A DNA stretch of 64,000 nt from an uncultured Gammaproteobacteria bacterium (GCA_964645555.1 CAZYBP010000001.1:759-64758), one strand, 5' to 3'; shown: positions 3,448-34,379, numbered from the stretch's first letter. The notes: generated from the sequence alone by a model not told the origin. Program-made: numbers and translations.

Positions 3448-3457
3448 CGCACAAGTC

Positions 3458-3688
3458 TCATTCAGAGTTTCTAATATACTCCCAAACTGCCTGCAATATC
3501 CCTATTAACCAACCGATGAAGCTGACTCTCATTAGAGGTTCAGCCAAATTACGAAGAGTTAAAACTGTCAAGACAGCTGCCAGAACAAAAAAACCTAAAG
3601 CTACTTTCATAGAGAAACTGGCCTTTTTTTTCAAAGTCCAGATCACAATTATCCATACCGCCAAAATTGCCCAATAGATTATCTCCAT
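3458..3688 (-). CDS. Small hydrophobic membrane protein (2-3 TM), function unknown
   Basis: 76-aa ORF composed almost entirely of hydrophobic helices. Lies immediately downstream of a family-A membrane gene. Could be a GtrA-like small flippase subunit or spurious. Confidence 0.3.
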   Translation of the reverse strand: MEIIYWAILAVWIIVIWTLKKKASFSMKVALGFFVLAAVLTVLTLRNLAEPLMRVSFIGWLIGILQAVWEYIRNSE

Positions 3689-6606
3689 AATAATTTCCTA
3701 ACAATAATATACACTAGTCCTGCCGCTAGTGACAAAAATGAAACTATCTTACCTGCCTCAAGCACACGTTGAGGAGCAAACTCTAACGTCAGATTAAAAT
3801 CTCCACTTCTCTCTACTAACCAGCCGTTAGCATAAGTATTAGCTAAGAAATGTTTATTAATTCTGGTACCGTCATCTAATGTAGCCTCCCAACTACTGTT
3901 GAATAATTCCGAAAGTACTAAGATAAACGGTTTGTCTGCTGCTTTAATTTGTATTGAATATTTTGTTGGATTATGTTTTATATATGTAATTTTAGGAAGA
4001 GGGGAATCCAATAGAGAATTTTGACTGATTAGTATAGGTAGGGGGTCTATCAAGCGGTTAACGGATAGATTTTTCAGAATAATTTCGGTTGGCATTACAG
4101 AATTTGCCCAAAACATTGCATTAGCTCCTTCGGATCTTTGTGCGTTAAATCCGCCTTTGGCAAATATAAATGAGGTGGAGTTTTTTCCTTTAGTCAGAAG
4201 ATTAAAGTTCGGTGCCTGGAGAACAAGATTATTATTTCTTACCATGTCATTACTCTGATTAAAAATGAATGTGAAGTCCGATCCTGAAGAAATTATGTAG
4301 TTAAATTGTATAAAGTACTTCCCATAAGGATCAAAATTATTGATTTCATAAGAAATTTTTTTATCTTGATTTGTAGAAATAATAAGATCCCTGGGAACAG
4401 AAAGCAGATTTTCAGTTACGGGTCTTTCTATGATAATCTTGTGCTGACCTGGGCTGAAATTAAACAACCCGTATGAAATTTTATTGTTTTGTATCTGGCC
4501 CTTTTGTAAAGCAATTTTATCATCAACAATAACTTTAATATTTGCAGCAATAGATGCTTCATTTGCCTCCAGAATAACATTATCCAAAATAAGCTCATAA
4601 TCAGCATCTTTTTCGGCATTAATTTTATATTCCTTTTTGTGCTCAAAAGATGGTATTTCATCAATAAGAGTTTCCTTTTTTTCTTCCTCAGGATACAAAA
4701 TAGTTACAACGCTCATGCTGTCAATTTCTTTCCGGGTATCGGTTGAAAGTAATACATCATAATGTTCATTGCCCCACAAAACATCTGATATTTTAGATTG
4801 AGGAAAAGTAAATATTGGTTTATTTGCTGCATAAACGGTTCTGTCTGCCCAACTGGTATTTTCCCACAGTTTCAATTTTTCAAATTGAGCAACTTTCTTG
4901 AAACTACCCTCTTCTTCTCTTTCTGCAAGAAGCTTTTCTATAACTTGTGGATCCCTCAACCTTCTTTCCCTGATATCAATATCTGAGCGTGTCAATAAAA
5001 ATTTAACATTTAACAGATTTGCAACTTTAGAAAAATCAGGCTCCCTGACAAACAACTTTTCTAATCCCTCAACTACTTGTGAATAATAAGGGATAGTCGT
5101 ATTAAAAGAGATATTAGGAGTTGAAAAGAGTATCTCGGAAGGCTCTATACCCTGGTAGCCTTTTTCCCATTTATAAGTCATTCCCTCATCACCCAAAGGG
5201 AGACTGATAAACCTAAAATTCTTCCCCTGCCTTTGCAACCAAGTATCAGCCTCCTTATAATAAGATGGCACTTTTACCTGAAAGCCTACTTTGTAATTAT
5301 TATTTGGTGGAGTAACACTGGTAAAAACAAGGCCCGAAAAGAAAGGAAAACCTAAGACGGCCAAAACTAAAAGGAAAAAAACAGAGAAAATTATTAAAAC
5401 GGCTTTTTTACTGTATTCTCCTAATTGAGATACGCCTGCAGCAAAAAGAGGTGCAGAAACTAAAGCGGTTATAAAACCAATTTTTTCAAAAGGGTCTCTT
5501 AAAATTTGCAGAACAGATAATCTGGTAAAAAAGTATTGGAAGACTTCACCAAATGGTTGATTACTACCTTTTGCTATATATAACCCAAAGAAAAATATTA
5601 TAGTCAAATAAAGCACAGATAGCTTTGATCTTAATTGGTAAATTACCCATAAAATTGTTCCGGTAAAACCAAATAGGATTAAACCGGGTAAAAAAGTATT
5701 AAATGCAGCCGACCAAGCCGGACCTTCTCCCTGATAAAAACCTCTATGCATAAATCTTAAAATATCGATTAAATTTCCCAGTTTCCGGCTAAGAATATTT
5801 AGAGTGTAAAGATTGCCTTCGGTAGTTATAAAAAGAGACAGTTCCTTGGCTGTATTTTCAGATTGAACAAACTGAAAAGTGGGGATAATCCACCATGCAT
5901 GCACCAGGATAAAAAAGCTTAAGGTTAATAAAATATATTTGATGGCAAAAAAGGTGAATTCCTTTTTTCTAAAGGCTAAAATGAAAAAAAGCCAGGTGAA
6001 AGCAAGTAATAACCACATAAGAAAGTTAAAAACATACGAAGTAAAGGCATAGGAAAAAATGTAGGTCGCAATACCAAAAATAATACCGGCAATAAAACTT
6101 CGTTTTTGTAACCCCCAAATAAAAAGAAAAAGTAAAATCGGTAAAGCTGCCCAAAAAACCATATAATTATATAAAAACCTGTTCCAGACATTCACCATGG
6201 AAAGAGGGTTAAACCAGTAGAATAAAACTGCCAATAAAACATATTTTTGGGCAAGATTGGGAAATAAAAGTTTTGTTAATCCATACATTCCCACCCCGGC
6301 CGAAATAAATAGAAACCAGAAGGTGAAAGCTTGAAGTATATAGCCTGGTATCCCCAACTTTTGAATTTCCGAAAGCAACCACCAGCTTGGAGCTGATGCA
6401 ACTGTCAGACTTTAGGTACTACCTAACTGAAAATCAGTCCAGGCCCAAGCTGTTTTATCCTTATATCTTTCCAGGTTATGAAACGGAATTATCGCTTCCG
6501 CTGTTCCTAATATATTGCCCTCACGGAACCATATTGAAACTAAAATGCCGGCAAGTAACGCAATTAATATAAAAAAACTTCGTTGCCCAGCAATAAATAA
6601 TTTCAT
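3679..6606 (-). pseudogene. Family-A large polytopic membrane protein (GT-C-like candidate, YfhO/AftD-like architecture) interrupted by one in-frame TAA
   Basis: ORF 6412..6606 (N-terminus ILVSIWFREGNILGTAEAIIPFHNLERY...) and ORF 3679..6378 are in the same frame, separated only by TAA at 6412-6414. The joined product aligns without gaps to the intact paralog 22488..25316 from its N-terminus onward. The ATG at 6604-6606 overlaps the TGA stop of the upstream gene (ATGA). Confidence 0.55.
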
Positions 6607-9272
6607 AGTTTTGTCTTTAATATTACCATCAAAATCCCTATGCTTAAAACCGTCAGCCCCGTTACCAATAAACCTTCCGAAACAAATTTTTGAGCTTTAA
6701 ATTCCAGAATATATTCCCCATTTTTTTCAACCGGGAAAACATTTAGCAAACTATAGCCGGGAAGCGAAGATTTATCATCCAGTTGCCATAAAGGATCATA
6801 GCTTTCAGAAAAAACCAAAAAGCCTGTTCCTTTAAAATCCCTAATCAACACTTTATATTTAGTAGAATTTATTTTCTGATATTCAACTTTCACTGCAGAA
6901 TCGTCAATGGCATTGCTAAATTTTCCAATACTTTGCTGATAAATTAAGGCTTTGTTTTGATAATCAGACCAATCCTCAGGATGCACAAAAATGAGTGCAT
7001 TTATGATATTTATATCCCCGGATGAGGAAACTGTAATTGGAGAATCAGAACTTATTTTTCCTACTTCAAACCATCTGACGTTAGTATCTTTGTCAATTTT
7101 CGTTGAAATTTCCCCGACTAACTGTTCGTCCTGGTAAAAGCTTACTTTCCCGCTTCTTGAGCTCTCCATAACTCTTGCAAGCAATATTTGTCCATTTTTC
7201 AATTTTTCACTCTCAATTTTCAATTTTCTCTCTCCTTCCCCTACTGCCCAGCCCCCTCCGTAATCAAAATCTGTATTGTCTATACCGTATTTTGTCTTAA
7301 GAAAGTACCGAAACCGGATTAAATCCTTTGTCTGTCTTTTCCACCAACCTGATTCATCAGGATCTAATTTCAGTTTCGATGAAGGAAAAATAAACTTAGA
7401 GGCAGGAATAAAAGAAGCAGCCAAATCCAGATTTGTTTTATTATTTAAGATAATTTTTGCATCACTTATTCCTTCCATCCTCTCTGATAACCCCGGGTAT
7501 TCTTCGGCAAAGACTAAAGCATTATTAGATAAACTCAACTTGCTGCTGGTTGTTGCTTCAGCGTAAATACTGTCTGACCCGACTACCCACCAAAAGTTTG
7601 AAGTTACAAAAAATTTATTCTGATGCTTAGTTGTCTTCCAAAGGGGGATGGGGGAATCAGCAATTCTTGATAGCCAGGGAAGTTTATTCAGTTGATCTGA
7701 AAAGGTATCGTAATATTTAACGTTATCCGGATGCAGATCGTCACGCCTTGGATCAAACGCCGGATAGGCAATATACCCTATACCTGCTACATTAAATAAT
7801 TCACCCATAAAGGATGCTTCTCTTAAAAAATTAAATATTTCATAAGTGCCTTTCGTACCTATAGCAAAAGGTCTTTTCTGGACAAACCTGGCTGCCTCGG
7901 CAGAAGGATGATTATCGTCAATCAAACCTAAGGGCGGGATAGCAGGAATCCAAAATATTCGGGAAAATTCCAGGTCATCTCCAACAATATTATTTAATTT
8001 AGAATATTCCTGCTGGTAAATGGGTAAATAAAACGTACCGGTCATTTGCCCCAACCATACAGGTCTAATCAGGAATAAAAGATAGATTATAACTGCGATA
8101 GGAAATAATATCTTAGCTTTCGTACTCTTTAATTTGTTTATAATTTCATCTACCGAAATAGACAGCAGGATCGTAAAGGATAAAGCAACAAGAAAGAAAA
8201 ATTTTGTTGAATCCCGAAATAGGGAAAAACCGGGTATATTATGGAATAAAAAGGGATAAACTTGACTAAGCGGTTCGGATGCTCCTTTTGCTAAAAAGAC
8301 TGACAGTAAAACAACTATCAGCCAAAAACCCACTGTTTTGTCTTTAGGCCGGAATACCGGTGCCAAAAATACAAAAATCGGGATAAGAATAAATTCAAAA
8401 TTCAAAGGACTAATTTTTCCAAAGATATTTTTAAACCAATGAGGAACAATTAAAAACATTGAATGACCTATTGTTGTAAAACTTTCAAAGTTTGTTTGTG
8501 TCAACATTAAATAGGTAGAGTCAGATAACGGTTTTTTAATTATCGGTACAAGCCAATAAGCATTCATCCCCCCGACTATTAAAAGAGAGACAAAAGCCAT
8601 CTGAAATGAATTTTTGATCCAACTTCCCCATTCCTTCCTATTTAAAAATAAGAATTCATAAATGAAACGCAAAAAAGATAGAATTATCAATATATAGACA
8701 AACCTAAAATCTAAAAAACCTAAAACCCAAACGGAATAAGCTGCAATTATCTTATTTATCCATCCTTTTTTGATTGCTGTTTCTATCGCCAAAAAGCTGA
8801 TTGGAAAAAATGCATATGCCATACCAACCACCATCTGTCCCCCGTCAATGACTGAAAGAATATATGTATTAGTTAAATAAAAAATAATCGCTATAGTTTT
8901 TGCCGGCACAGATAATTTAATATTTTGACCGGTTTTCCATATCCCCCAACTACCGAAAGCAAGGATAAAACCGGTTAAAAGAATCCTTTCCAAAAAGGCA
9001 AAAGTAAAACCAAGATGTATCAGTACTGCAGAAATAAACATCATCGGCCAGGACCAAATAGTATAAACTGAATATTCACCCAAACCCTCCGCTCCGAAGT
9101 CAAGCCAAACCCGGGGAATATCAAAAAAGGATTTAAGGGCAGTCTCGGAAACCAGCGGATAGTCAACAGCCACTCTTGGACCGGGTAAAAACCATGTCCA
9201 AAAGATAAATGAAAAAACACAAGTTAAAAGTAATATTGCCGCCTTTTTACTCATGTATTTTTTATCTCCCAT
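6603..9272 (-). CDS. Family-A large polytopic membrane protein (GT-C-like candidate), 889 aa
   Basis: N-terminal multi-TM domain of roughly 12 helices, a large beta-rich C-terminal ectodomain and a final TM anchor (LLVTGLTVLSIGILMVIL). Paralogous to 10964..14386, 22488..25316 and 3679..6606. Confidence 0.7.
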   Translation of the reverse strand: MGDKKYMSKKAAILLLTCVFSFIFWTWFLPGPRVAVDYPLVSETALKSFFDIPRVWLDFGAEGLGEYSVYTIWSWPMMFISAVLIHLGFTFAFLERILLTGFILAFGSWGIWKTGQNIKLSVPAKTIAIIFYLTNTYILSVIDGGQMVVGMAYAFFPISFLAIETAIKKGWINKIIAAYSVWVLGFLDFRFVYILIILSFLRFIYEFLFLNRKEWGSWIKNSFQMAFVSLLIVGGMNAYWLVPIIKKPLSDSTYLMLTQTNFESFTTIGHSMFLIVPHWFKNIFGKISPLNFEFILIPIFVFLAPVFRPKDKTVGFWLIVVLLSVFLAKGASEPLSQVYPFLFHNIPGFSLFRDSTKFFFLVALSFTILLSISVDEIINKLKSTKAKILFPIAVIIYLLFLIRPVWLGQMTGTFYLPIYQQEYSKLNNIVGDDLEFSRIFWIPAIPPLGLIDDNHPSAEAARFVQKRPFAIGTKGTYEIFNFLREASFMGELFNVAGIGYIAYPAFDPRRDDLHPDNVKYYDTFSDQLNKLPWLSRIADSPIPLWKTTKHQNKFFVTSNFWWVVGSDSIYAEATTSSKLSLSNNALVFAEEYPGLSERMEGISDAKIILNNKTNLDLAASFIPASKFIFPSSKLKLDPDESGWWKRQTKDLIRFRYFLKTKYGIDNTDFDYGGGWAVGEGERKLKIESEKLKNGQILLARVMESSRSGKVSFYQDEQLVGEISTKIDKDTNVRWFEVGKISSDSPITVSSSGDINIINALIFVHPEDWSDYQNKALIYQQSIGKFSNAIDDSAVKVEYQKINSTKYKVLIRDFKGTGFLVFSESYDPLWQLDDKSSLPGYSLLNVFPVEKNGEYILEFKAQKFVSEGLLVTGLTVLSIGILMVILKTKL

Positions 9273-9439
9273 AAATATTTAACTGTCCCTACAAAAAAAA
9301 TAAAAAGGGGTAAAATTAAAAGCCGCCCGGCAAACCCTTGATGATTTGAGGCAATTGCTAAAGCTGCCAAAAAAAGAAACACTAACCCAAAAAGAAAGAA
9401 AGACTTAGCAGATAAGCTCATCTTTAAATTATATCCCAA
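9251..9439 (-). CDS. Possible small membrane protein (62 aa)
   Basis: Hydrophobic two-helix ORF in the 196-nt divergent spacer. May simply be promoter-region noise. Confidence 0.2.
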   Translation of the reverse strand: MGYNLKMSLSAKSFFLFGLVFLFLAALAIASNHQGFAGRLLILPLFIFFVGTVKYLWEIKNT

Positions 9440-9467
9440 AACTTTTGATTTAGTATATTATATAAAC

Positions 9468-10967
9468 ATGAAGAAGTTATTCCCCCTGATTATAATATTT
9501 GTAGTTGTTTTCCTCTTATATTATCAGACTCTTTTTGTTTATTTTTCTCAGGATGATTTCTTTATGTTTAAAATCAGTCAAACTGACAATACATTAGGGG
9601 GATTTTTAAACCTGTTTGCCATACATTCTTTTCCGGAAAGAGGCATTGCGTTTTACAGACCCATCTTCAGAGAAGCCTTGCATAATATCTATTTTTCTGC
9701 CTTTGATTTAAACCATCTCCCTTTTAGGATACTAATGCTGATTGTTCATTTTATTAACATATCTTTGGTCTATTTTTTGGTAAATATTATCTTTGGAAAC
9801 AAAATTCTTGCTACCTTGGCAGCTTTTTTCTTCGGCATTACCGCTGCCAATGTTGCTCTTTTATATTATTTGGCCGGGGGAATAGAGACGGGCGGCGCAA
9901 CAATGTTTGCTCTGTTGACATTGATTTTATATAGAAAATATTTAGTAAATAATAATCCGGCGCTGTATCTGGCAACATTTGTTACCTTTTTAATGGCTAT
10001 TTTTTCTCATGAAATAGTGGGAATGACTGCCGGAGTTATGCTTATAATGCTTATTACATCCAACGTTAAAAAAATCTCAAGCAAAGCAATTGCTCTTTTA
10101 CCATTTCTACTTGCTACGGTTTTTCTTTTTTACATAGATTTAGTCAAGATCGGTCTTTCTTCCGGAGAAAAACAATATCAATTTATTTTCAATATCTCTT
10201 CTGTATTAAATTCCATAGTTTGGTATTCTGTTTGGGCTTTTGGCATCCCTGAAATGCTCATTGATTTTATAGGACCGGGGATAAAACTTAATCCGGTACT
10301 CATGCGCTACTGGGGAAATTATTATACGGTTATCTTTATTGCTTTCGGTATTGCTCTTTCCATCTTCCTTTTCATGTTTTTGTATTTAATACTTAAAAAA
10401 AAGTTTGTGTTTTTTGACCGGCGGTTTTGTTTTTTTCTGCTCTGGCTTATGGTGGGGCTGCTGCCGATAATATTTTTACCAAACCATAAATCCACCCACT
10501 ATTTAGTCTTTGTCCTGCCAGCTTTCTGGACTGTTGTGACTTTCATAGTCTTAAATTTTTACACTAACATGTCAAAATATGCTAAATTTACCGCTAGCAT
10601 ACTGACTGCCCTGGTAATTTTTTCCCTTTTAACCCTATCTGCAGTGTCTATAAAACTAGAAGACACTACATATTGGGCAGCAAGCAGAGGAAGACTGGCA
10701 GAAAGATTAATAAATCAAATCAAAACAACTTATCCTAACTTACCCAAAGAAGCTATTATCTACTTCGAAAATGATCCAAATTATCCCCACCTCACTGCAG
10801 AATGGGGTTCCAGTTCCAAACAGGTAGCTGTTATATTAAACAATCAGGACGCTTTAAGACTTATCTATAATGATTCCAACCTGAGAGTATATTATGAGGA
10901 TCTTGACAAACCAGCGGAAAAGCTTCAAGAGACAAATGTCTATCGAATAAAAGCAAAAATATATTAA
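9468..10967 (+). CDS. Family-B polytopic membrane protein (GT-C-fold, GT39/ArnT-like candidate), 499 aa
   Basis: At least 10 TM helices. Acidic FSQDDFFMF motif in the first extracytoplasmic loop, as in the Dx(D/E) loop-1 motif of GT-C enzymes. Stop overlaps the stop of the convergent gene. Confidence 0.6.
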   Translation: MKKLFPLIIIFVVVFLLYYQTLFVYFSQDDFFMFKISQTDNTLGGFLNLFAIHSFPERGIAFYRPIFREALHNIYFSAFDLNHLPFRILMLIVHFINISLVYFLVNIIFGNKILATLAAFFFGITAANVALLYYLAGGIETGGATMFALLTLILYRKYLVNNNPALYLATFVTFLMAIFSHEIVGMTAGVMLIMLITSNVKKISSKAIALLPFLLATVFLFYIDLVKIGLSSGEKQYQFIFNISSVLNSIVWYSVWAFGIPEMLIDFIGPGIKLNPVLMRYWGNYYTVIFIAFGIALSIFLFMFLYLILKKKFVFFDRRFCFFLLWLMVGLLPIIFLPNHKSTHYLVFVLPAFWTVVTFIVLNFYTNMSKYAKFTASILTALVIFSLLTLSAVSIKLEDTTYWAASRGRLAERLINQIKTTYPNLPKEAIIYFENDPNYPHLTAEWGSSSKQVAVILNNQDALRLIYNDSNLRVYYEDLDKPAEKLQETNVYRIKAKIY

Positions 10968-13900: not shown

Positions 13901-14386
13901 ATAAGGCAACGATGCCGAGAGGATAAAATTGGCATAAATAAATCTATGCCAAACAATCATCATAAAAGGATTGAATATATAAAATAACCCAGCCAAAAGC
14001 TGCAATCTACCACCATAAGGAATAATTTGCTTACAAAGCAGGCTTACCCCCAAGCCTTGTAAGTAAATTATGATAAAAAATATGACCTTTTGGATCCCGA
14101 TTGCACCAAAACCTAAACGTTCTAAAATACTCATAAAGTAGTAGAAAGGTATTGATGCGGCAACTGTGGGAATTGAAGTACCGGGGCCTAATGCTTCCCA
14201 CCACAACCATCTAATCTGTTCCAATATTTTTCCCGGGGCGTAAGTCGGAATACCTACCTCAGTTCCTCCAAACAATATATTCTTAGTAAACCAAAGTTGC
14301 ACTAATAAAAAAGCAATCAATAAGAAAAAAACTCTTGGATCCAGTAAAATATCTTTTACTTTTTCCAGAGTTTTCATTTTTTCCAT
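10964..14386 (-). CDS. Family-A large polytopic membrane protein (GT-C-like candidate), 1140 aa, with central coiled-coil insert
   Basis: Carries RNPFEKTG, and the C-terminal YANGWLINRTGE motif followed by a TM anchor. Roughly 100 aa of charged helical sequence (EADRLRQAKKEQEF...) sits between the TM domain and the beta-rich ectodomain. Confidence 0.7.
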   Translation of the reverse strand: MEKMKTLEKVKDILLDPRVFFLLIAFLLVQLWFTKNILFGGTEVGIPTYAPGKILEQIRWLWWEALGPGTSIPTVAASIPFYYFMSILERLGFGAIGIQKVIFFIIIYLQGLGVSLLCKQIIPYGGRLQLLAGLFYIFNPFMMIVWHRFIYANFILSASLPYFVFFYIKLLEKGRMIFIFLFLVISFLASYMFSSVAPVIAIWLAVAVIFIFSVFENRRQVKKITRNIFLTVTLFVLWILTNFWWLYPLFSTTNLVSAFSNKGNVDTLLTLSSQSTINYVIRGINPFIMFFEKDWGEVYLSPYFQLLSWTSVLFILLSFIKREGKVWYMITLFLFGVFMAKGAAEPFGKITAWIYANIYLLGAIRNPFEKTGLLVFLPASILITLGVRNLWIFKIKLNVPFKALIPKIITVILVMGMIVYVWPMFGDRLFGSDKYPPFFTVPADYKEVSAFLSKELTINPGKILILPISEGDAATYNWTYTYNGVELASHLFPGASISRQLYIPFVDRLIEEIARTFHKENYIAQKAILKNLGIKYIVLNKDLDYSQRRIDNPKKIEHFLNTSSDLSIVKETGHLKVYKFLDETKSAVNIAGGISLVSGSGLPRDISQTDYIMGNVINTNNIFLQEFSTQHIDESILYKEILYPQRVIPLESFSTPPDIIIPRPFIKYLPDSIFYPAVILKEKIEFYFTPFYEKSMKMLVLTQKRIIEADRLRQAKKEQEFNRSIAQYSAYLDETTGMLKKLSEEDLDTQTKSIIKVVLDEEKKKLTSFIDAAGNNEINLKIKEDIEKISAFLKDIGLEVYYTFVDTEVENSSKINVYQFFIRNHTRMEFILTSVDSKHFGLEDGKTIKVYLDGTAKYMVLKQEDSKNWFSLGEIELTPGVHEIGLSIQNNLNVLHKVDSNKEGITEYTISDYNPDKTYILSFNYKVLQGPPPQIQFWQDSDKLTGVKVPKLRKEISDNAHDFNWKYLTLSISTNNTASVRLDRSTDKPTIKIFTDNQSKVEIRDLSIAESFNGSVVLSSSVGNTFSPVTAEFKKISPVEYQVQVNNPNQDMFIVLNESFHNGWKVIMDSPKMGEVAEKDHYLTNGYANGWLINRTGELSFRIKFTPQDNLYTGLKISLTVFFLLSLLLLGKQFRRKQLN

Positions 14387-17214: not shown

Positions 17215-17232
17215 ATAAGGTTGATTATACTT

Positions 17233-20710: not shown

Positions 20711-20786
20711 TTAAATTAAGGTAAACATTAACAAAAAACTTAAAAAAAGTATAGACTTTAAATAATACTCATTATATGATGATCTC

Positions 20787-22541
20787 ATGTCCAAAGGTTT
20801 GATTCAAAGTTTACTTCTTTGCTCCATTATAATAGTTATCAGTCTCTTTACACTTTATCCTTCCTTTAAACTTGCTTTGTTTGGAGACGATTGGCAGCAA
20901 ATCTTTCATTATTTTCTTTATCTTGGGCCAAAGAGCAGCGTTTTCGATCATTTAACTTATTTTGTAGGGGGCTATGGGGCTTTTGGAGTTATTACAGGAA
21001 TATCTTACCTGGCTTTTGGCCATGATTATAAAATGTATTATATATTTTCATATATATATAAGTTACTTTCTGCCTTTGCAATTTTTCCCCTTGCTTTTTA
21101 CTTAACCCGTTCAAAACTTGCAGCCTTTTATGCTTCACTATTTTTATCTGTCACCATCATCGGGCTTGAGAGTACTAATTGGGTAGTCAATTCCCCCGCT
21201 TACCTGGCTGTTGCCAACCTATCGTTATTTCTGTATTTTTTTCTAAAGTCCAGGGAAAATTTAAAACCACTCTATTTTATTGGGGCGGCAATATTTTTTT
21301 ACCTTGCCCATATTTTTGCCCCCGTCAGAATGACCGGTCTGCTGCCGTTTACAATAATTTTGGAGATATTTCTATACATTAAATCTCTCAATATTAAATT
21401 ATCGTTTATACGCTTGGTCATTCTATTTGTTGTATTTGCAATCATTACTGTTACGGGAGCATCTGCAGGCAGAACTGATACATTAGCCGGACAAGCATCA
21501 AAAACACTATTTTCCGGGTTTAGCCAAATTGCTGCTGCATTAGACAAAGGCCGCACAGACTTTTTATTTTATCCGGTCATGACTGTTGGCCGTATTGTTG
21601 TACCGGATACCACAGCTATTAAAATATTTCCCATGCTGATTTATCTGATTGTATTTATGGCAGTTTTTTATGCAAATGCCAACAAAAGTAAAAAAGTAAT
21701 TGCCGGTATAGCAGTGGGGATAGCCGTTTGGTCACTAATCAGTATGCTGATTTATGAATCCAATAAACTCACGTTATCAGCCCGCGATGCTTTATCCCTG
21801 GCTATTGGAGGATATTTTTTAACAACTGCCATTATATTATTGTTTTTTTTAAAAAAGCATTTGCTTTTTTACTCTGTATTTATAGCCAGCTTTTGGTCCG
21901 TATTTTCATTTATATTCCCTTGGATTAGAGCACCGGAGACGCTGAACCCGACTGAACATAGATACTTAGTTGCTTCATCGGTTGGTGTTGCAATTTTCTT
22001 TGCCAGTATTATCGGGCTGGGTAAGCAGTTAAAAAACCGTGTTTATCTTTTTTTGGTAGTAATACCGTTTTTATTAATAAATATTTTGGCCACCCGGAGT
22101 TTTCTTACCGACGCTGTCCAAAATAGCCATGGCAGTGAGGCAATAAATAAAATTTGGCCGCAATTTCCCCGTATTGCTGAAATTGGTAAAACGGAAAAAC
22201 CATTAATGTTCTTCTTCACCTCTTCTCCTGAAAAAGAAAAATTAAAACATCATTCTCTGACATTCGGTTTTCCTTTCAGAATGGCCTTTATCTATAATAT
22301 CGACAATTACTGGAAAATGCCTATTGCTACCAACAGCTGGGAAGATATCGTCTCGGCAGTTTCGGACGGACAATCTTTATTTATGAACAATTTCCCCAAA
22401 GATCCTATCCCTGTTGAAAATATTTATGCATTCTACCTTACTTCTGATAACAATTTATTAAATATAACAGAAGCGACAAGAGAAAAATTAAAGGATTTTC
22501 TTAAACAAAACCCAGAGAGTAATAATCAGACCGGAAATTAG
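20787..22541 (+). CDS. Family-B polytopic membrane protein (GT-C-fold candidate)
   Basis: LFGDDWQQIFHYFLYLGP motif, many TM helices. 3' end overlaps the convergent family-A gene by 54 nt. Confidence 0.6.
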   Translation: MSKGLIQSLLLCSIIIVISLFTLYPSFKLALFGDDWQQIFHYFLYLGPKSSVFDHLTYFVGGYGAFGVITGISYLAFGHDYKMYYIFSYIYKLLSAFAIFPLAFYLTRSKLAAFYASLFLSVTIIGLESTNWVVNSPAYLAVANLSLFLYFFLKSRENLKPLYFIGAAIFFYLAHIFAPVRMTGLLPFTIILEIFLYIKSLNIKLSFIRLVILFVVFAIITVTGASAGRTDTLAGQASKTLFSGFSQIAAALDKGRTDFLFYPVMTVGRIVVPDTTAIKIFPMLIYLIVFMAVFYANANKSKKVIAGIAVGIAVWSLISMLIYESNKLTLSARDALSLAIGGYFLTTAIILLFFLKKHLLFYSVFIASFWSVFSFIFPWIRAPETLNPTEHRYLVASSVGVAIFFASIIGLGKQLKNRVYLFLVVIPFLLINILATRSFLTDAVQNSHGSEAINKIWPQFPRIAEIGKTEKPLMFFFTSSPEKEKLKHHSLTFGFPFRMAFIYNIDNYWKMPIATNSWEDIVSAVSDGQSLFMNNFPKDPIPVENIYAFYLTSDNNLLNITEATREKLKDFLKQNPESNNQTGN

Positions 22542-25316
22542 TGCAAATTGCGATATTAAACTATCTTTGTCTAAATCATTTTGCAGACTATATTCCAAAT
22601 TCAAGTCAAAATCTCCTAGTCTGTCGATTAACCAACCGTTAGCAAAAGAGTTGGTCAGGAAATGTTTCTCAACTTTAGTCCCGTCCGGATAACTCAATTG
22701 CCAGCCACTGTTAAAAATAGAGGAGAAAACAACCACAAACGGATTTAAGGAATTTTCAATACGGATGTTGTATCTTGACGGGCTGATTTTGTCATAAGAA
22801 AGATTAGGTGTTTTATTAATTCTATCTTCTAATTTATTGATTAAAACTAAATCCGGTAGCATTAGTTCTCTTACGTTCATATTTTTAACCTTTAAGTTGT
22901 CTAAGTCAGGCCAAAAGTATATATTTAGCGCACTGGCTGTTGAGCGTGCTTCAAACAAATCATTAAACGACTCAAAACGATCTAAAGTGGTAGTTGTTAA
23001 ATCTTTCATATGATACGGACGAATCTTACCTTTTTCTTTTTGATCATTATCAAAAGAAATAACTAACTTTTTTTCTTGTAGTGTCGAATAATCAAAGGAA
23101 ACCAAATATTTTGAGAAAGGATTGATATTTAAGACAGTAAAACTGTTTTTATCATCAGATAAGGTTGTAAGATTACCTGAATACGAAATATTTATTATTA
23201 CTGTGTGTAATCCTTCTGTTAAGTTGAGTTCGCCATAAGACCACCTGCCGTCTTCTCTTAAAACCGGATTTCCTTGTAGCCTGACACCATCAACTAAAAT
23301 ATCTCCAGGTTCCGATAACTTATCCGAAATTAACTCATATTTGCCGCTATTTTTAATATCAAATTTGTAGTAACCGGGTTTGCGCTCCGGATTTTTCAAA
23401 TCATCAGGATGGATAACCCTTAAGTTAACCAGGTCGTCAAGATAGGATATATTTGAAATAGCAGTTCCGGCTGAAGAAGCCTCAGAAAAAGTAAAGTCTT
23501 TTAATTGAACCGTTGGCGATACATCCATTAAATTACCTGTTACATACAGGCTCTTGTCGGTCCAAAATGGGTTTTCCCAAAATTCAAGTTTGCCGAAAGA
23601 TAAGGTTTTTACCAATTCTCCTTTCTTACTTTTGTCCATGGCGATTTTTTGTATTGTTTGAGGATCCCTCATTTTTCTCTCGTAAATATCTACATCGGAT
23701 CTGATTAGTAGATATTTAGCGTTTAAAACATTCATAACCTCATAAAATTTGGGCTTACTGACAAATAACTCTTCCAGTTGATCAGCAACTTTGTCAAAAT
23801 ATAAAATAGTGGTAGAAGACATAATATGCGGAGTATCGAATAGCCACATTGATGTTTCTATTCCTTGGTAGCCTTTTTCCCAATTATAGGTTACCCCTTG
23901 TCCGCTGAAAGGAAAACCGATAAATCTAAAATTATTACCCTGGAACTTGAGCCAATTGTTGGCCTGCTCATAATACTGCGGCACTTTTACCTTATACCCT
24001 ACCGAATAATTGTCTGTCGGCGGGAAAAAACCGGTAAAAACAAGGCCTGACCAAAAGGGATAGCCGTATAAAGCAACTATAATGAATAAAGTGGCTGTAT
24101 AAACTGCTAAATGTAGCTTCTTTTGAAATTTTGACAATAAACCTTCAAGCCCCGCAGCCAATAAGGGTACTGCAGCAAGTAAGGTTATAAAACCAAATTT
24201 TTCAAATGGATTTCTAAAAAATTGCAGAGGAGAAATATTAATAAATAAAAATTGAAATAATTCTCCAAAGGGGGGATTATTTCCTTTGGCAAAGTATAGG
24301 CTTAGAAAAAACAATACGGCCAAAGCTAAAACATTAATATTTTTTCGGGCTTGAAATATAAAAATCAAGATAACTGCGGAAACTAAAAATTCTATTACTA
24401 CCGCTGCCGGCATGGAAAATAACTTCGGCCATTCAATTTGCGGAGTGGTGAAGAATGGCCCATGAAATAATCTAAAAAGGTATGTTAAATCCCCTAATGT
24501 TTTACTTGAGGCGGTCAGCGTCGATAGGCTTACATCGAATTGGAAAAAGGAAGATAATTCTTCAGAATATTTACCTATAAAAAGACTCCTTACAACCTGA
24601 CCAATCCACCATAAATTGACTAAAGAAAAATAAATTAAATTTATAGCAATAAAGCTTAGAGAAAATATTCTTTCCTTGGTTGTCTTAACTGTGATAAATT
24701 TAAATAAGGTAAAGTAAGTAAAAATAAACCATAAAATTATATTAAAGACAGGGTTTGATAATCCTAAAGAAAAAACAGCACAAGTTATCCCCACTACGGA
24801 AACATAATAAAAATTCTGTTTCTGTAAACCTTTGATATAAAAAGCGGAAACCAGAGGCAGAAGTGCCCAAAAAGCTATGTAATTATATAGAAATCGATTC
24901 CAAATATTAACTAAAGAGATAGAATTAAACCAATAAAATATAACTGCTACTACCAAATACTTCCTGCCAATGTGGGGAAAAAATTCCCGGGTAAATAAAG
25001 TAATTCCAACTCCGGATACTACAAGAAAAAACCAAAAAAGTCCGGCTTCAATTATATAATTGGCTACGCCAATTTTCTCAAGTAAAGAAAGCGCAAAAAA
25101 AGTAGGGGAGTATGCAGTCACAATACCGTTGGCAAATCCCAATCCGGAATTTGTGTCGGACCAGGCGCCCTTAACCTGACTATGAAATCTGGATAAATTA
25201 TAAAAGCTAATCTGGCTTTCGGCAGTACCTAATAATAAACCATCTTTAAACCAAGTAAATACCAAAATTGAACTGGCAATGGCTAAAACAGCTAAAAGTA
25301 GAAGGATGCTCCGCAT
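22488..25316 (-). CDS. Family-A large polytopic membrane protein (GT-C-like candidate), 942 aa
   Basis: Carries RNPFEKFGF, and the C-terminal FANGWLIDRLGDF motif with a TM anchor. Serves as the intact reference paralog. Confidence 0.7.
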   Translation of the reverse strand: MRSILLLLAVLAIASSILVFTWFKDGLLLGTAESQISFYNLSRFHSQVKGAWSDTNSGLGFANGIVTAYSPTFFALSLLEKIGVANYIIEAGLFWFFLVVSGVGITLFTREFFPHIGRKYLVVAVIFYWFNSISLVNIWNRFLYNYIAFWALLPLVSAFYIKGLQKQNFYYVSVVGITCAVFSLGLSNPVFNIILWFIFTYFTLFKFITVKTTKERIFSLSFIAINLIYFSLVNLWWIGQVVRSLFIGKYSEELSSFFQFDVSLSTLTASSKTLGDLTYLFRLFHGPFFTTPQIEWPKLFSMPAAVVIEFLVSAVILIFIFQARKNINVLALAVLFFLSLYFAKGNNPPFGELFQFLFINISPLQFFRNPFEKFGFITLLAAVPLLAAGLEGLLSKFQKKLHLAVYTATLFIIVALYGYPFWSGLVFTGFFPPTDNYSVGYKVKVPQYYEQANNWLKFQGNNFRFIGFPFSGQGVTYNWEKGYQGIETSMWLFDTPHIMSSTTILYFDKVADQLEELFVSKPKFYEVMNVLNAKYLLIRSDVDIYERKMRDPQTIQKIAMDKSKKGELVKTLSFGKLEFWENPFWTDKSLYVTGNLMDVSPTVQLKDFTFSEASSAGTAISNISYLDDLVNLRVIHPDDLKNPERKPGYYKFDIKNSGKYELISDKLSEPGDILVDGVRLQGNPVLREDGRWSYGELNLTEGLHTVIINISYSGNLTTLSDDKNSFTVLNINPFSKYLVSFDYSTLQEKKLVISFDNDQKEKGKIRPYHMKDLTTTTLDRFESFNDLFEARSTASALNIYFWPDLDNLKVKNMNVRELMLPDLVLINKLEDRINKTPNLSYDKISPSRYNIRIENSLNPFVVVFSSIFNSGWQLSYPDGTKVEKHFLTNSFANGWLIDRLGDFDLNLEYSLQNDLDKDSLISQFALISGLIITLWVLFKKIL

Positions 25317-25362
25317 AACTTACTAGTTATTATACCAATTAATTTTAAGGTATAATCGAACA
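25317..25362. promoter_or_regulatory. Compact divergent promoter region with back-to-back TATAAT boxes
   Basis: The 46-nt spacer between divergent starts holds ggTATAAT on the + strand at 25347-25352, 10 nt before ATG 25363. The complementary TATAAT on the - strand (from ...ggtataataactagtaagttATG) sits 13 nt before the - gene ATG. This suggests very short leaders. Confidence 0.35.
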
Positions 25363-26229
25363 ATGTCTAATCCTGTTTGTCCTAATTGCAAAAACAATAA
25401 GGATATTTCAAAATTGATTTTTGCCAAAAATCTTTATATATGTAACCTCTGCAATAACGGTTTTTTATTTCCTATTGAAAAAAATTTATCCAGATTCTAC
25501 CCTGCCTCTTACTGGAAATACCCCGGCCAACTATCTTTTATTAGATCCGGATTACATAATTTGCTTCAGTACAGAAGAAAAAAATGGCTAATAAAATATC
25601 TTAAAAGAGGTGCCATTCTGGATGTTGGAGCTGGGGAAGGGGTATTTGGGAAAATATTAGGCTCAGATTATCAAATTACAAATTTAGAATCACCTTTTGC
25701 TGAAATTAGTAATAAAAATACTATCAAAGTTGACTTTCTGGCTTGGAAAACCAACCAAAGATTTGATGGAATCGTATTCCTGGAAAGCTTAGAACACGTA
25801 CCCGGTCCGCAAGAGTATTTAAAAAAAGCACAAAGTCTGCTGAAAAAAGGAGGATATATTTTTGTGGAATGTCCGCGTTTTGACTCATGGGAAGCAAAGT
25901 TTTTCAAAGATAAATGGCTGCATTTAGACTTACCAAGACATCTTGTACATTTAACCAGAGGTGGTTTAGCCACTTTAGCTTCAAGAAGCAAACTTAAAGT
26001 GGTCAGCCAAAAAGGTATGCTTGTATATGAATTTTCATCTTACTGCTTCACGGTCAGTTTAATGCATCTGTTAAAAATAAAGCCCCTAAATTTACGGGAA
26101 AAATCTATTAGTAATTTTACTTCCATTTTACTTGCTTTAGTTCTCCTGCCGGTTGGCTTTATATTTGAAACAATCCTTCATTTATTTGACCAGGATCCTG
26201 TCCAATTATCAGTTTTCCAAAAACAATAG
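25363..26229 (+). CDS. SAM-dependent methyltransferase with N-terminal zinc-ribbon
   Basis: CPNC...CNLC pair followed by motif I ILDVGAGEGVFG. Confidence 0.7.
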   Translation: MSNPVCPNCKNNKDISKLIFAKNLYICNLCNNGFLFPIEKNLSRFYPASYWKYPGQLSFIRSGLHNLLQYRRKKWLIKYLKRGAILDVGAGEGVFGKILGSDYQITNLESPFAEISNKNTIKVDFLAWKTNQRFDGIVFLESLEHVPGPQEYLKKAQSLLKKGGYIFVECPRFDSWEAKFFKDKWLHLDLPRHLVHLTRGGLATLASRSKLKVVSQKGMLVYEFSSYCFTVSLMHLLKIKPLNLREKSISNFTSILLALVLLPVGFIFETILHLFDQDPVQLSVFQKQ

Positions 26230-26238
26230 CTTAAATAT

Positions 26239-26943
26239 ATGTCTTATAAATTCAAAATAAAGAACAAAAAACTATTTCAACATGGTTTAGAAACTTTTGA
26301 CAGACAATATTTTAATCACTTTTTTAAAAAATACAACGAACATGAAATTATGCTTTACTATAGTTTTTTTAGAGGCTGGATAAGGTTTTTGGATAAATTT
26401 CTTCCACTTAAAAACGGGCAGGGAAAAAAGGTACTGGAAATAGGTTGCGGTATAGGAGCTTTTGCCAAAATTCTTGCCGAGAGAGGCTTTGAGGTGGTAG
26501 CTACAGATATTTCTTCCTTTATTATTAATAAGGCAAAGAGGAATATTACAGGCGTTAACTTTCGAGTATTAGATATTGAAAAGGGTACAAATCATGAAGA
26601 GAAATTTGACTATATTTTCGCTTTTGAAGTTTTGGAGCACTTATCAAACCCAATAAAGGCTTTGGAAAATATGAAAAAGAAATTGGGCAAGAAAGGAGTA
26701 TTGATTTTTTCGACCCCTTACCCTACCAAAGAAACTTTAGCAGACCCTATGCATATTAACGTCCATCCGCCGGAATTCTGGTTATCAAATGGCAAAAAAA
26801 TAGGTTTTAACCACGTAACTGTAAAAAATGCATCTTTTATTCCTTATCTTTATAGAATCAATTCATTCTTTAGTAGAGCTATTCCTATAAGGATAAATTC
26901 CCATTTTGTAAACAGTACTTGTTTTTATATTTTTAATATGTAA
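26239..26943 (+). CDS. Class I SAM-dependent methyltransferase
   Basis: VLEIGCGIGAFAKIL...VVATDIS and FAFEVLEHL motifs. Confidence 0.75.
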   Translation: MSYKFKIKNKKLFQHGLETFDRQYFNHFFKKYNEHEIMLYYSFFRGWIRFLDKFLPLKNGQGKKVLEIGCGIGAFAKILAERGFEVVATDISSFIINKAKRNITGVNFRVLDIEKGTNHEEKFDYIFAFEVLEHLSNPIKALENMKKKLGKKGVLIFSTPYPTKETLADPMHINVHPPEFWLSNGKKIGFNHVTVKNASFIPYLYRINSFFSRAIPIRINSHFVNSTCFYIFNM

Positions 26944-26959
26944 TTTTGTATACAAGACA

Positions 26960-27808
26960 ATGAATAATCAAAAACTTAAGTTTTTATACACTGATATTAA
27001 AGATTCGTACCTGGAATTATTGAAAGACACTTTAACTCATATAATTTATGGTAATTATGAGGTAGGTGCAACGCTCTCATCCCGTTTCCTGATCGAGAAA
27101 ATAATATCAAAGATATTGGGTCTAGTACATTTAAAATTAGTATTTAATAAACCTTTTAATCTCAAAGACAGAGAATATGGAAATGACTGGCCGCTAAGCG
27201 CTCACACAATGATTGGAAAAAGACGTCTAAATAATATTCAGTTCTGCATTGAGAATATCTTAAAGGAAAAAATCCCAGGAGATTTGATTGAAGCGGGCGT
27301 GTGGAGAGGAGGAGCCAGCATTTTTATGAAAGGAGTTTTAAAAGCATGCGGAGATAACAAACGGTGTGTTTGGTTAGCGGACTCGTTCCGGGGATTACCG
27401 CCTCCGGATATTAAAATGTACCCCCAGGATAAGGGAGATATTTTTTATCAAGTTGGTTACTTAGCTGTACCGGTTGAGGAGGTAAAAAATAATTTCAAAG
27501 CATACAACCTATTGGATGATAGGGTAAAATTTTTGATTGGATGGTTTAAAGATACATTGCCAAAAGCGCCTATAGGCAAACTTGCCCTTATCAGATGTGA
27601 TGGCGATATGTACGAATCAACTATGGATATATTAGTAAATTTATATCACAAACTTTCTACTGGCGGTTATGTAATTATTGATGACTATTATTATATTCCT
27701 GCATGCAAACAAGCAGTCGATGATTTTAGGAAAAAAAACAATATAAAAGACAAAATATTTGATATTACAGATATCAAAGGGGGAATATATTGGAAAAAAT
27801 TACAATGA
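26960..27808 (+). CDS. Macrocin-O-methyltransferase (TylF/MycF) family sugar O-methyltransferase
   Basis: GDLIEAGVWRGGASIF...WLADSFRGLP...CDGDMYEST...GGYVIIDDY reproduces the conserved blocks of TylF-family MTs. Confidence 0.8.
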   Translation: MNNQKLKFLYTDIKDSYLELLKDTLTHIIYGNYEVGATLSSRFLIEKIISKILGLVHLKLVFNKPFNLKDREYGNDWPLSAHTMIGKRRLNNIQFCIENILKEKIPGDLIEAGVWRGGASIFMKGVLKACGDNKRCVWLADSFRGLPPPDIKMYPQDKGDIFYQVGYLAVPVEEVKNNFKAYNLLDDRVKFLIGWFKDTLPKAPIGKLALIRCDGDMYESTMDILVNLYHKLSTGGYVIIDDYYYIPACKQAVDDFRKKNNIKDKIFDITDIKGGIYWKKLQ

Positions 27809-27827
27809 AAAGCCCAACATTAGAAAA

Positions 27828-29930
27828 CTATTCCCATGGCCAAATTTTAAATAATATATCAATTGTATAATCTCCCTTATTGTCTATCAACCAACCATTG
27901 GCAAACCCATTAACTAAAAAATGTTTGTCTACTACCTGGTTATCGATCCGTGCTTGCCAAAAACCATTGTATGTATCATTTAAAACTAATACAAAAGGTG
28001 TCCTTGCCCCTACTTGGACCTTGAAACGGGTGGGAGATTTCTTTTCAAACACCAAATCAACTGAAGAATCTGAATTTTGGCTAAGCTCGCCTGAAGAGCC
28101 GATAGACTGGTAATTTTCTGTATCGACAAAAGCAGCCTCAGTTGTATCAAACCCGCCGCTGCTTATACTATTTAATGCCTGATCAATGGAATCAAATTCT
28201 GCCAAAGATGTCACTGCGAAGATTTCCGGCTTAACAATGCTTTTTTCTAAAGTGTAAACAGTTAAAGGCCCGAACTCTGCATCCTTAGTAATTTCCCGCC
28301 ACTGGTCTATTTTGACTGTATTTAAATCCAACTGAGGATAAATCATATCACGGTGCAAAATAATATGATCAACTCCCAAAAGTCCTAATGTCCTTGGTAA
28401 GAAATTCTGGGAGAGGTATTTGGGGATTAATATATAGTAGTTGTTAAAAGTAGGTACTGTTGAGCGGGAGACGTTTTGTGAGTCAAACAGATTTTCAGCA
28501 GGGTCCTGTCCAATATAACCCCATGAATATTTTAATAATTCTGCCTGTACTGAAACAGGCAGATGAAAAATTCTTTGGCTTGAATTTGAGTTCAAATAAT
28601 CATTAGCCTGGGTATAATACGGAGGAATTGTCAGCCTGTCTTTAGAAGGGAATATTCTACCATTCCACATCGGATAAACTAAAATGCCATATAATAAGAC
28701 TATCAAAAAAACTCTTAATACCCGGCCGCTTTTTCCGGTAAATTTCTTAAAAATGTAATTCAAACCAAGTGCAAAAAAGACTGAGTAAGGCAAAAGGAAA
28801 ACTAATCAAAATTTCTCATAGGGGTTTCTCAAAGCTGCGCTGAATGGGAATGTTGAAAAGATCACAGAAAAAAATTGGTATCCCAAAGGAAAGTTTGAAC
28901 CCTTACTGACAAACCAGCCAATCAGTAATAAACTAATTAAATATTTAAAATTTTTTTGGGTCTTTTCCTTTACAATACCCAGTATAACAATAGCCAAAAC
29001 AACTAAACTTATTAAGTAACTAAAGAAATTATTATAGAACTCAAACCATCCGGTACTTAAAGAGCTTCCCTTTTCAAAAAAAGCTTTCTGGCGCAGCATT
29101 AAAATATCGGTAGTTCCAAAGTATTTACTTACACCTATTAGTGACTCACGGTGTATTCTCCATTCCTCTGAAAACTTAGCTAAGGTAGCTCCCTGTGCAG
29201 TTGACTTGTGAATTAAAGGATAAATCCACCAGGTGTTGACTAAAACTGTCACAATAACCGTGAATATACACTTTAATAAAAGTTTTAATAAATAAGTTTT
29301 ATTTTTTCTATTTTGAATAAATTTAATAAGGGCATAAATACCTGCCACTGTTAGGTAAACAAACAAATATGCAGGATGGGAAAAAGCATGCGAGAATACT
29401 GTCATGCTTGCAGCAATAAAAATTAGCCAATAAATTTTACCCTCGTCCAACCATTTTATCCAAAGAAAGATAAACAGTGGCAGGTAAGCCCAGGGAAACA
29501 TGCCTTGATAAATGTTCCTTTTCCAAACCTGGGTCATGGAGTATAGATTAAGTAAGTAAAAAAAACTTCCTAGTATAGATATTAGCTTACTTTGTCCAAA
29601 ACCTTTGTAAAGCAAAAGGTACATAAAGACTACACCTGAAAACATGATTATCCAATATGAAAGTGCCTGAATCAAAAAGGGCGCAAATCCGGCCTTTTGA
29701 AACAAGCTCAAAAATGTCAGATAGGGAAATCTTACAAATTCAAAAATATTTACGCTACCTGTACCAGAAGGATACCAACTGCTAGAAAAATATTTTGCAG
29801 TTCTTTCAAAGTTAACAAAAGATAAATTCTCCTCACTATTGTTTGAAACAAAAGTTTTTGTCGAGAACCAGGAAAATATGATTATGAAAGTCACAAAAAA
29901 TGCAAGCAGTAAGAATGATCTGGTCTTCAT
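27828..29930 (-). pseudogene. Family-A membrane protein paralog (shortened) interrupted by in-frame TGA at a conserved Gly codon
   Basis: ORFs 28806..29930 and 27828..28793 are in the same frame. Sequence reads ...RNPYEKF-TGA-LVFLLPYS..., where intact paralogs have RNPFEK(F/I/T)-G-(F/L).... The C-terminal part keeps the FANGWLIDNKGDY motif but lacks the final TM anchor. Confidence 0.55.
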
Positions 29931-34344: not shown

Positions 34345-34379
34345 AAATGGTATTATACATTAACAATAGAGGATATAAT

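Follow-up and report, generated by a model that had tools for sequence, protein, structure and literature searches.

What do five large membrane proteins encoded within one glycan-biosynthesis locus do, and do they form a single family? This question is raised by a 64,000-nucleotide stretch of DNA recorded as uncultured Gammaproteobacteria (GCA_964645555.1, CAZYBP010000001.1:759-64758; hereafter the window, meaning the whole stretch), in which an earlier note had recognized five paralogous genes, called here A1 to A5 (Table 1) and all located on the minus strand. Their products belong to the AftD/DUF3367 family of GT-C glycosyltransferases, which is already present in Pfam and in NCBI annotation. 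The genes come from a bacterium of the candidate phyla radiation (CPR), and the most interesting leftovers are the unannotated and strongly conserved clade to which A2 belongs and the strain-specific nonsense codons that interrupt A1 and A5.

Homology among the five genes

The five genes are homologous, as first proposed. In BLASTP comparisons, A1 and A4 align with an E-value of 0 (36% identity over 964 residues), and the other pairs formed by A1, A3, A4 and A5 are connected by E-values of 8e-55 (A1–A3), 7e-38 (A1–A5), 2e-36 (A3–A4), 5e-36 (A3–A5) and 1e-39 (A4–A5). These matches cover the membrane domain; the C-terminal regions of the four proteins, compared separately, give E-values of 5e-10 to 1e-19. 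A2 matches the other four weakly in pairwise comparisons (E-values of 1e-4 to 8e-8, 17–20% identity), and the hhalign comparison of a profile of 39 A2 orthologs with a profile of 58 sequences of the A4 family yields a probability of 100% and an E-value of 3.7e-41 over 775 columns. The family resemblance is thus not compositional. The opposite view, namely that the five genes are unrelated and owe their common motifs to the biased composition of hydrophobic membrane proteins, could draw on the AT-richness of the genome (GC content of 32–40%) and on the low identity of A2 to the other four, but it is refuted by the above E-values, by the conservation of motifs that belong to a soluble domain and by the fact that the structural models of A4 and A2 share the same best structural match, AftD (see below); we give it practically no chance of being right.

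Assignment to the AftD/DUF3367 family

Three of the five proteins pass the gathering threshold (26 bits) of the Pfam family PF11847 (GT-C_AftD, formerly DUF3367): A3 (51.6 bits, E = 5e-14, residues 80–576), A4 (37.1 bits) and A5, for which the C-terminal half of the interrupted gene scores 41.6 bits and the intact copy present in a sister assembly 72.1 bits. A1 lies below the cut-off (19.8–20 bits) and A2 gives no match, so that they join the family only via A4, by pairwise identity in the case of A1 and by the profile–profile comparison in the case of A2. None of the five received a family assignment from NCBIfam. In NCBI, a protein of Candidatus Daviesbacteria (CPR, Microgenomates group) that bears the name 'DUF3367 domain-containing protein' is 100% identical to A4.

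Structural modeling points to the same family. The AlphaFold2 model of A4, built with the family alignment, has a predicted local distance difference test score (pLDDT) of 91.3 and a predicted template modeling score (pTM) of 0.89; the pLDDT of the A2 model is 83.9. With Foldseek, the best match of the A4 model is AftD (E = 3.9e-18) and that of the A2 model is the AftD structure 6W98 (E = 3.6e-12). The multi-transmembrane (multi-TM) domain, the long first extracytoplasmic loop and the superposition on solved GT-C enzymes identify a GT-C fold, as opposed to the transporter-like fold considered as an alternative in the earlier note. At the sequence level, AftD was missed when the PDB was searched with A3, the A4-family profile of 58 sequences or a relative (P0081); it was reached only by a more diverse profile, made from 48 proteins that carry the C-terminal module described below, which matches 6W98 with an E-value of 1.5e-29 over 541 residues (AftD residues 27–567).

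The structure comparison also bears on the possibility that the five proteins are oligosaccharyltransferases that glycosylate proteins (S-layer proteins or pilins), like PglB, AglB and STT3. AftD scores clearly higher than these enzymes, with 693 aligned residues as against about 440. Moreover, the WWDYG-type motif of PglB, AglB and STT3 is absent from the conserved ectodomain columns, and the ectodomains contain modules resembling carbohydrate-binding modules (CBMs), which are typical of glycan-acceptor enzymes. With AftD as the nearest family, we regard a role in protein glycosylation as very unlikely.

Membrane domain and residue correspondence with AftD

The N-terminal domain, which had been credited with roughly 12 TM helices, comprises 11 TM helices plus juxtamembrane helices in the A4 model. 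Its invariant residues are E33 in the first extracytoplasmic loop (EL1), W139/R141, W237, G345/P349/G351 and R368/E372/K373. Among A4 relatives, E33 is invariant in 55 of 55 sequences and R368, E372 and K373 in 58 of 58, while position 487, in the domain that follows, is E or D in all 58. The topology was derived from helix order in the model, hydropathy and charge bias. By hand count, 17 Lys/Arg residues lie in the short cytoplasmic loops and at helix ends versus four in the short outside loops, these four being all invariant motif residues; a scripted tally limited to loops, with helix ends ignored, gives four inside versus two outside. Helix order and this positive-inside bias place the RNPFEK motif on the extracytoplasmic side, which is where the earlier note expected a GT-C catalytic loop to lie.

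The R(N/D)P(F/Y)EK motif, the WNRF-like block and the 'ANGWL' module are all present in A1, A3, A4 and A5. The two former elements had been described as common to the whole family, which holds for these four proteins and not for A2, where RNPFEK is replaced by RDSTK (RDS-TKFFF) and WNRF by IDGGQ, and where the EL1 acid is D37 (conserved in 39 of 39 A2 relatives). The C-terminal module of A2 is degenerate, devoid of ANGWL and followed by a TM anchor.

AftD from Mycobacterium/Mycobacteroides (PDB codes: 6W98, 6WBX and 6WBY) displays the same succession of an 11-TM GT-C domain, an α/β ectodomain and CBM-type β-sandwiches, and has in common with the family R357-N358-x-x-K361 at the junction between EL5 and TM10, the E475 acid and the 'WW' of TM7. 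Note that the AftD chain numbering equals the native numbering +3, as checked on D37, K39, D41, E251, W272, D351, K361, D474 and E475, whose residue types agree with those of the AftD paper. R357-N358-V-H-K361 of AftD aligns with R-(N/D)-P-F/Y-E-K in A1, A3, A4 and A5 and with R-D-S-T-K in A2; its Arg and Lys are kept in all five proteins, K361 being the counterpart of K373 in A4. Likewise, AftD E475 aligns with E, E, E and D in A1, A3, A4 (E487) and A5, respectively, and with E in A2. K39, D41, E251, K361 and D474 are essential in AftD (bioRxiv 10.1101/2019.12.22.885152); only K361 is conserved here, and the D474 column, with I, A, V, I and Q in the five proteins, does not keep the essential Asp. 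In the profile alignment, the column of the EL1 acid (E33 in A4) falls on AftD D37 and not on the mutated D41. Altogether, the PF11847 matches of A3, A4 and A5 and the alignment of an extracytoplasmic motif with AftD R357/N358/K361 support the proposal that a GT-C-type membrane module, catalytic or donor-binding, is shared by proteins with divergent ectodomains for acceptor recognition.

Are these proteins then functional AftD orthologs, i.e. true arabinofuranosyltransferases using decaprenyl-phospho-arabinose? In both the structural and the profile comparisons, AftD comes first; it has given the Pfam family its name, and NCBI calls two relatives (P0027 and P0028) 'alpha-(1->3)-arabinofuranosyltransferase family protein'. 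However, identity to AftD is 11–15%, and neither the single proteins nor the narrow family profile match AftD directly. The five proteins are shorter (700–1140 residues, versus about 1400 for AftD), they have one or two β-sandwich modules where AftD has three CBMs, and the four-helix bundle of AftD (TM12–16), which binds the acyl carrier protein, is replaced by a single C-terminal TM helix (none in A5). K39, D41 and E251 are unconserved, neither a UbiA-type phosphoribosyltransferase nor a DprE1/E2-type epimerase was found among the open reading frames (ORFs) of the 64 kb window, and the host is a CPR bacterium without the mycolata envelope. The NCBI name is a family label only: the proteins are not AftD orthologs, and a true arabinofuranosyltransferase activity is, in our estimate, extremely unlikely.

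Extracytoplasmic region and C-terminal module

The membrane domain is followed by an α/β domain that is conserved among the paralogs, with V445, P446, Y449, P469, W479, G485 and D541 as its invariants in A4. The earlier note had described the whole region of 300–600 residues between the conserved ends as hypervariable; the middle part indeed varies most, but the first 150–200 residues of the region correspond to the conserved α/β domain. Between paralogs, identity amounts to 33–47% in the C-terminal module, 24–39% in the membrane domain, 18–50% in the α/β domain and 18–25% in the middle ectodomain, whose length ranges from 57 to 385 residues. Among 17 A4 orthologs, the corresponding values are 66% (C-terminal module), 65% (TM domain), 65% (α/β domain) and 48% (middle). 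The variability of the ectodomain is real but moderate, and consists of gain and loss of modules more than of point hypervariability. The coiled-coil insert of about 100 residues spotted in the 1140-residue member turned out to be a DUF5667 domain, which is matched in A3 above the cut-off of 27 bits and is absent from the other four proteins.

In the A4 model, the C-terminal helix extends from residue 910 to 941 and ends in FKKIL, which the topology places in the cytoplasm; the A2 model likewise shows a single C-terminal helix (residues 859–888). A C-terminal module followed by a TM anchor had been attributed to four members. The module is present in four, as stated above, and three of these also carry the anchor, A5 being anchorless: it ends straight after the ANGWL module (…LFKIWPWE) and has no middle CBM-like region either. 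Relatives of about 735 residues carry a tail of about 35 residues ('PQ..LE.GEK.S + TM helix') which A5 is without. This 3' truncation is also found in the sister assembly, and a search for a remnant TM anchor 3' of the A5 stop gave nothing convincing in any frame. The 3' end of A5 (27828..27830) abuts an opposite-strand block of three methyltransferase genes, whose convergent TylF gene ends at 27808.

To follow the C-terminal module beyond the window, a profile made from five sequences of the module was searched against 1.84 billion representative proteins, the database search suggested in the earlier note. At E ≤ 1e-3 there were 5305 matching proteins, of which 1539 remained at E ≤ 1e-10. Full-length matches (700–1200 residues) almost always have the module 30–40 residues from the C-terminus. 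PF11847 is matched by 33 of 48 such proteins, a few of which carry Laminin_G_3, CBM_4_9, ConA-like or DUF5667 domains in mid-protein. In one protein of 1705 residues (P0232), the ANGWL module is internal (residues 698–771) and a second matched stretch lies elsewhere; two AftD-like enzymes may have been fused in this protein.

Proposed mechanism

We consider it highly probable that the five paralogs are extracytoplasmic GT-C glycosyltransferases of the AftD/DUF3367 family with the architecture established above, and that their chemistry, which we infer, is as follows: (i) the 11-helix membrane domain would bind a polyprenyl-phosphate-linked sugar at the outer leaflet; (ii) the active site would lie between the membrane domain and the conserved α/β ectodomain, and be lined by the EL1 acid (E33 in A4, D37 in A2), the motif's R...K pair and the ectodomain acid E487; (iii) the donor phosphate would be contacted by R368/K373 (AftD R357/K361), with E33 and E487 serving in catalysis or in metal or acceptor binding; (iv) the variable CBM-like β-sandwiches would hold the acceptor polysaccharide, and the ANGWL β module and the 12th TM helix would reconnect the ectodomain with the membrane. 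The sugars or linkages added to cell-surface glycans would differ between paralogs, with donors produced by the short DPM1/GtrB/AglJ-like GT2 enzymes of the island and flipped by a Wzx/MOP-type or other flippase. Barring consensus errors, nonsense substitutions inactivate A1 and A5 in the variant sequenced here.

Several points weigh against this reading. AftD K39, D41 and E251 are unconserved in all five proteins (Q, S and S in A4), and the putative role of E33/D37 as the EL1 catalytic acid is suggested by invariance and position, not by a superposition. A2 has neither the motif's Glu nor the WNRF block, and might differ in catalysis or have no activity. In the window, A1 and A5 are interrupted. 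Finally, the matches of the GT2 enzymes to synthase-type models are all far below the NCBIfam equivalog cut-offs, and no GtrA/GtcA-type flippase was identified in the window.

Other GT-C systems share parts of this organization. EmbA/B/C combine a GT-C core with a C-terminal acceptor-binding CBM and are encoded by adjacent paralogous genes (embCAB). GT136 ORF12 of Citrobacter, which belongs to a three-component system for pentofuranose addition, also has a GT-C core and a C-terminal CBM, and its partner is a MOP/MATE-type flippase. The YfhO/GtlB-type GT-C enzymes of Firmicutes (PF09586), involved in the glycosylation of lipoteichoic and wall teichoic acids, are extracytoplasmic and polyprenyl-phosphate-sugar-dependent, have a large ectodomain and cooperate with a flippase and a GT2 of the GtrB/CsbB type; one genome can hold several GT-A/GT-C sets. 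Such GT-A/flippase/GT-C multi-component transmembrane glycosylation systems have been described (PMC8035078, PMC11127046), and the five proteins could, like YfhO, decorate secondary cell-wall polymers or polymers of the teichoic-acid type as the GT-C component of such a system, instead of building a glycan backbone. The architecture, with a GT-C membrane domain, a large ectodomain and a C-terminal TM helix, is shared; NCBI calls one relative (P0081) 'YfhO family protein'; and the island contains several GtrB/CsbB-like GT2 enzymes as well as a glycerophosphodiester phosphodiesterase (GDPD) and nucleotidyltransferases at 58.9–62.4 kb. Nevertheless, PF09586 is not matched by any of the five proteins at E ≤ 0.1–1 and a GtrA/GtcA flippase was not found. 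We hold this alternative, which differs from the mechanism proposed above only in the acceptor, to be unlikely.

Nonsense codons in A1 and A5

The five genes had been described as encoding membrane proteins of 700–1140 residues; two of them, A1 and A5, are interrupted in the window. In A1, codon 65 (6412..6414) is an in-frame TAA, and the ORF past the stop spans 3679..6378. A5 has an in-frame TGA at codon 375 (28806..28808), which splits it into ORFs of 374 and 321 residues and sits exactly on the Gly of the RNPYEKF-G motif. Reading of this TGA as Gly (genetic code 25) was ruled out: the sister assembly has GGA at this position, and TGA occurs in frame at no other site. Since TGA is the ordinary terminator of 17 of the 50 ORFs of the window, the standard bacterial code applies.

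The sister assembly, GCA_016187055.1, is represented by two contigs that are 99.8–99.98% identical to the window: L003 (window 3259..18251, 3 mismatches) and L001 (window 18307..30779, 20 mismatches). There, both genes are intact. Codon 65 of A1 is TCA (Ser) and the gene encodes 975 residues; codon 375 of A5 is GGA (Gly) and the gene encodes 700 residues; each stop results from a single-base difference. Over the 27.5 kb compared, there are ten separate substitution sites or clusters, two of which are the nonsense codons, both in paralogs of the family; most of the others are either synonymous or concentrated in a neighboring gene. This gene (20787..22541), a Pfam-less multi-TM gene, contains tight clusters of seven and eight substitutions (21388..21434 and 22316..22352) that account for 15 of the 23 differences and look like recombination or strain-mixing patches, not point mutation.

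Codon 644 of A2 (window position 7341) is TGG (Trp) in the window and TGT (Cys) in the sister assembly, and W644 is invariant across all 39 aligned A2-family proteins. Given this Cys at an invariant position of the sister, each assembly holds at least one probably deleterious singleton. No independent assembly with the A1 and A5 stops of the window was found, and look-ups of the exact products of A2, A3, the Wzx gene and the 374-residue A5 fragment returned nothing on record. The stops could be strain-level alleles that inactivate surface-glycan enzymes, or consensus errors; in the source population, A1 and A5 are functional, or were until recently.

Genomic context

The whole 64 kb window is a glycan-biosynthesis island of Candidatus Daviesbacteria. 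It encodes about 12 GT2/GT4 enzymes, at least seven methyltransferases, a UDP-GlcNAc 2-epimerase, a UDP-sugar dehydrogenase, several epimerases/dehydratases, a TylF-type O-methyltransferase, a protein of the sugar C-methyltransferase type, a carbamoyltransferase, an asparagine-synthase-like amidotransferase, nucleotidyltransferases and an FdtA-like cupin, in addition to the GDPD mentioned above. Judged by strand and overlapping ends, the family genes belong to three apparent operons: A2, A1, Wzx, GT2, methyltransferase and GT2; GT4, GT2, methyltransferase and A3; and 2-epimerase, GT4, epimerase, UDP-sugar dehydrogenase and A5. In the first of them, the stop codon of A2 and the start codon of A1 overlap as ATGA (6603..6606), which suggests translational coupling of the two GT-C paralogs, and the genes within 1..3447 are candidate donor-supply partners of A2–A1. 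The best NCBIfam matches of the 238-residue GT2 of this operon are AglJ, PgfS, PpgS and the Dol-P-hexose transferase, all below the cut-offs. More generally, five or six short GT2 enzymes (234–262 residues, plus the GT2 part of a 394-residue protein and one protein of 333 residues) align over most of their length with the AglJ, Dol-P-hexose transferase, PpgS, ArnC and PgfS models.

Table 1. Location of the five family genes, of the parts of A3 and A4 and of the genes downstream of A2–A1 (positions in the window)
Feature	Position	Strand	Residues	Description
A1	3679..6606	-		AftD-like GT-C paralog, 975 codons; interrupted by TAA
A2	6603..9272	-		Divergent AftD-like GT-C, 889 residues, intact; no Pfam match
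A3	10964..14386	-		AftD-like GT-C, 1140 residues, intact; helical DUF5667 insert in ectodomain
A3 DUF5667 helical insert	12116..12382	-	669–757	Pfam match, 30.7 bits
A4	22488..25316	-		AftD-like GT-C, 942 residues, intact; reference member for modeling
A4 membrane domain	24048..25316	-	1–423	11 TM helices plus juxtamembrane helices
A4 TM1			2–22	
A4 EL1			23–85	Two juxtamembrane helices; invariant E33
A4 TM2–TM7			86–233	W139-N-R141-F at outer end of TM3; N234-x-W-W237 at outer end of TM7
A4 EL4			234–302	
A4 TM8–TM9			303–344	
A4 EL5			345–369	K-G-x-N-P-P-F-G, then R368-N-P-F-E-K373 entering TM10
A4 RNPFEK motif	24198..24215	-	368–373	Outer end of TM10, past EL5
A4 TM10–TM11			370–417	
A4 extracytoplasmic α/β domain	23412..24047	-	424–635	Conserved among paralogs
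A4 variable β-sandwich region	22812..23411	-	636–835	CBM-like; fastest-evolving part
A4 C-terminal 'ANGWL' module	22590..22811	-	836–909	Conserved
A4 C-terminal TM anchor	22491..22589	-	910–942	12th membrane helix
A5	27828..29930	-		Short AftD-like GT-C, 700 codons; interrupted by TGA
Wzx-type flippase	2188..3447	-		PF01943, Wzx/MOP-type; directly downstream of A1
GT2	1403..2215	-		Pfam; co-directional, downstream of A2–A1
Methyltransferase	714..1406	-		Pfam; co-directional, downstream of A2–A1
GT2, 238 residues	1..717	-		Resembles polyprenyl-phosphate sugar synthases

The island also encodes multi-TM proteins that have no Pfam match. Two paralog pairs are found among them, 17221..19038/20787..22541 (605 and 584 residues, 30% identity, E = 9e-45) and 34347..36716/53137..55452 (789 and 771 residues, 44% identity, E = 0). 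A multi-TM protein of 499 residues is encoded by the other strand in the interval from A2 to A3 (9468..10967). All of these may represent additional glycan-assembly proteins, GT-C-like or polymerase/ligase-like.

Distribution of the family and the A2 clade

In 185,579 species genomes, the pattern QxFR[ND]PFEK led to 36 confirmed loci. Those with a named lineage, 19 in number, all come from Microgenomates-type CPR metagenome-assembled genomes (MAGs; Daviesbacteria, Woesebacteria, Amesbacteria and 'Patescibacteria group'). The other 17 (L007, L011–L013, L015, L016, L020, L023, L025, L026, L030, L033, L035–L038 and L040) are public MAG records titled, in the taxonomy as recorded, 'uncultured Gammaproteobacteria' ('binchicken' or SRP co-assemblies). 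This label looks wrong, as records of CPR Microgenomates are otherwise the only ones in which the cassettes are seen. Two or three family members lie within about 23 kb in 24 of the 36 loci, and a single one in the remaining 12; since most related loci hold several members, sets of paralogs are the norm in this lineage. A gene of the A2 type adjoins another family member in 15 of the 36 loci. For instance, the cassette of L011 encodes proteins of 1162, 879 (A2-type), 1141, 425, 267 and 231 residues, in an order that mirrors A3 ... A2, A1, Wzx, GT2, methyltransferase, GT2 in the window.

A2 has more than 330 homologs of about 880 residues, none of which is annotated ('hypothetical'); the 119 listed, leaving the sister copy aside, are 46–72% identical to it. 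Additional invariants of the A2 clade include D188, R190, E478, R484 and E485. Residues 295–404 of A2 (window ~8061..8390; TM8–TM11/EL5) give a sub-threshold match to the NCBIfam model 'MmpA family trehalose lipid delivery protein' (28 bits for a cut-off of 210, E = 6.9e-7), a hint that this GT-C segment may also occur in proteins of the MmpA type. One speculation, to which we assign a low probability, is that the A2-type proteins form a distinct AftD-like GT-C clade unseen by current models and acting as a core envelope-polymer enzyme of Microgenomates or as an obligate partner of a canonical paralog (as in EmbA–EmbB), the accessory paralogs A1 and A5 being switched off in individual strains. 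If this were true, such nonsense mutations would diversify the cell surface.

Significance

CPR genomes are about 1 Mb in size, and the glycan island described here is a very large investment for a genome of that size: in addition to the five AftD-like GT-C enzymes, its 64 kb or more encode about a dozen cytoplasmic glycosyltransferases and at least five other multi-TM proteins that lack annotation. To our knowledge, almost no envelope biochemistry has been characterized in CPR bacteria, and we found no literature linking CPR/Patescibacteria with AftD or GT-C enzymes. The family is now anchored at the residue level to a solved and mutated enzyme, which provides concrete targets for mutagenesis; the misleading database name 'arabinofuranosyltransferase' is corrected, and the unannotated A2 clade is marked as GT-C. 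These results do not change what is known of GT-C enzymes, but they offer a lead into the diversity of CPR surface glycans and into the recognition between episymbionts and their hosts.

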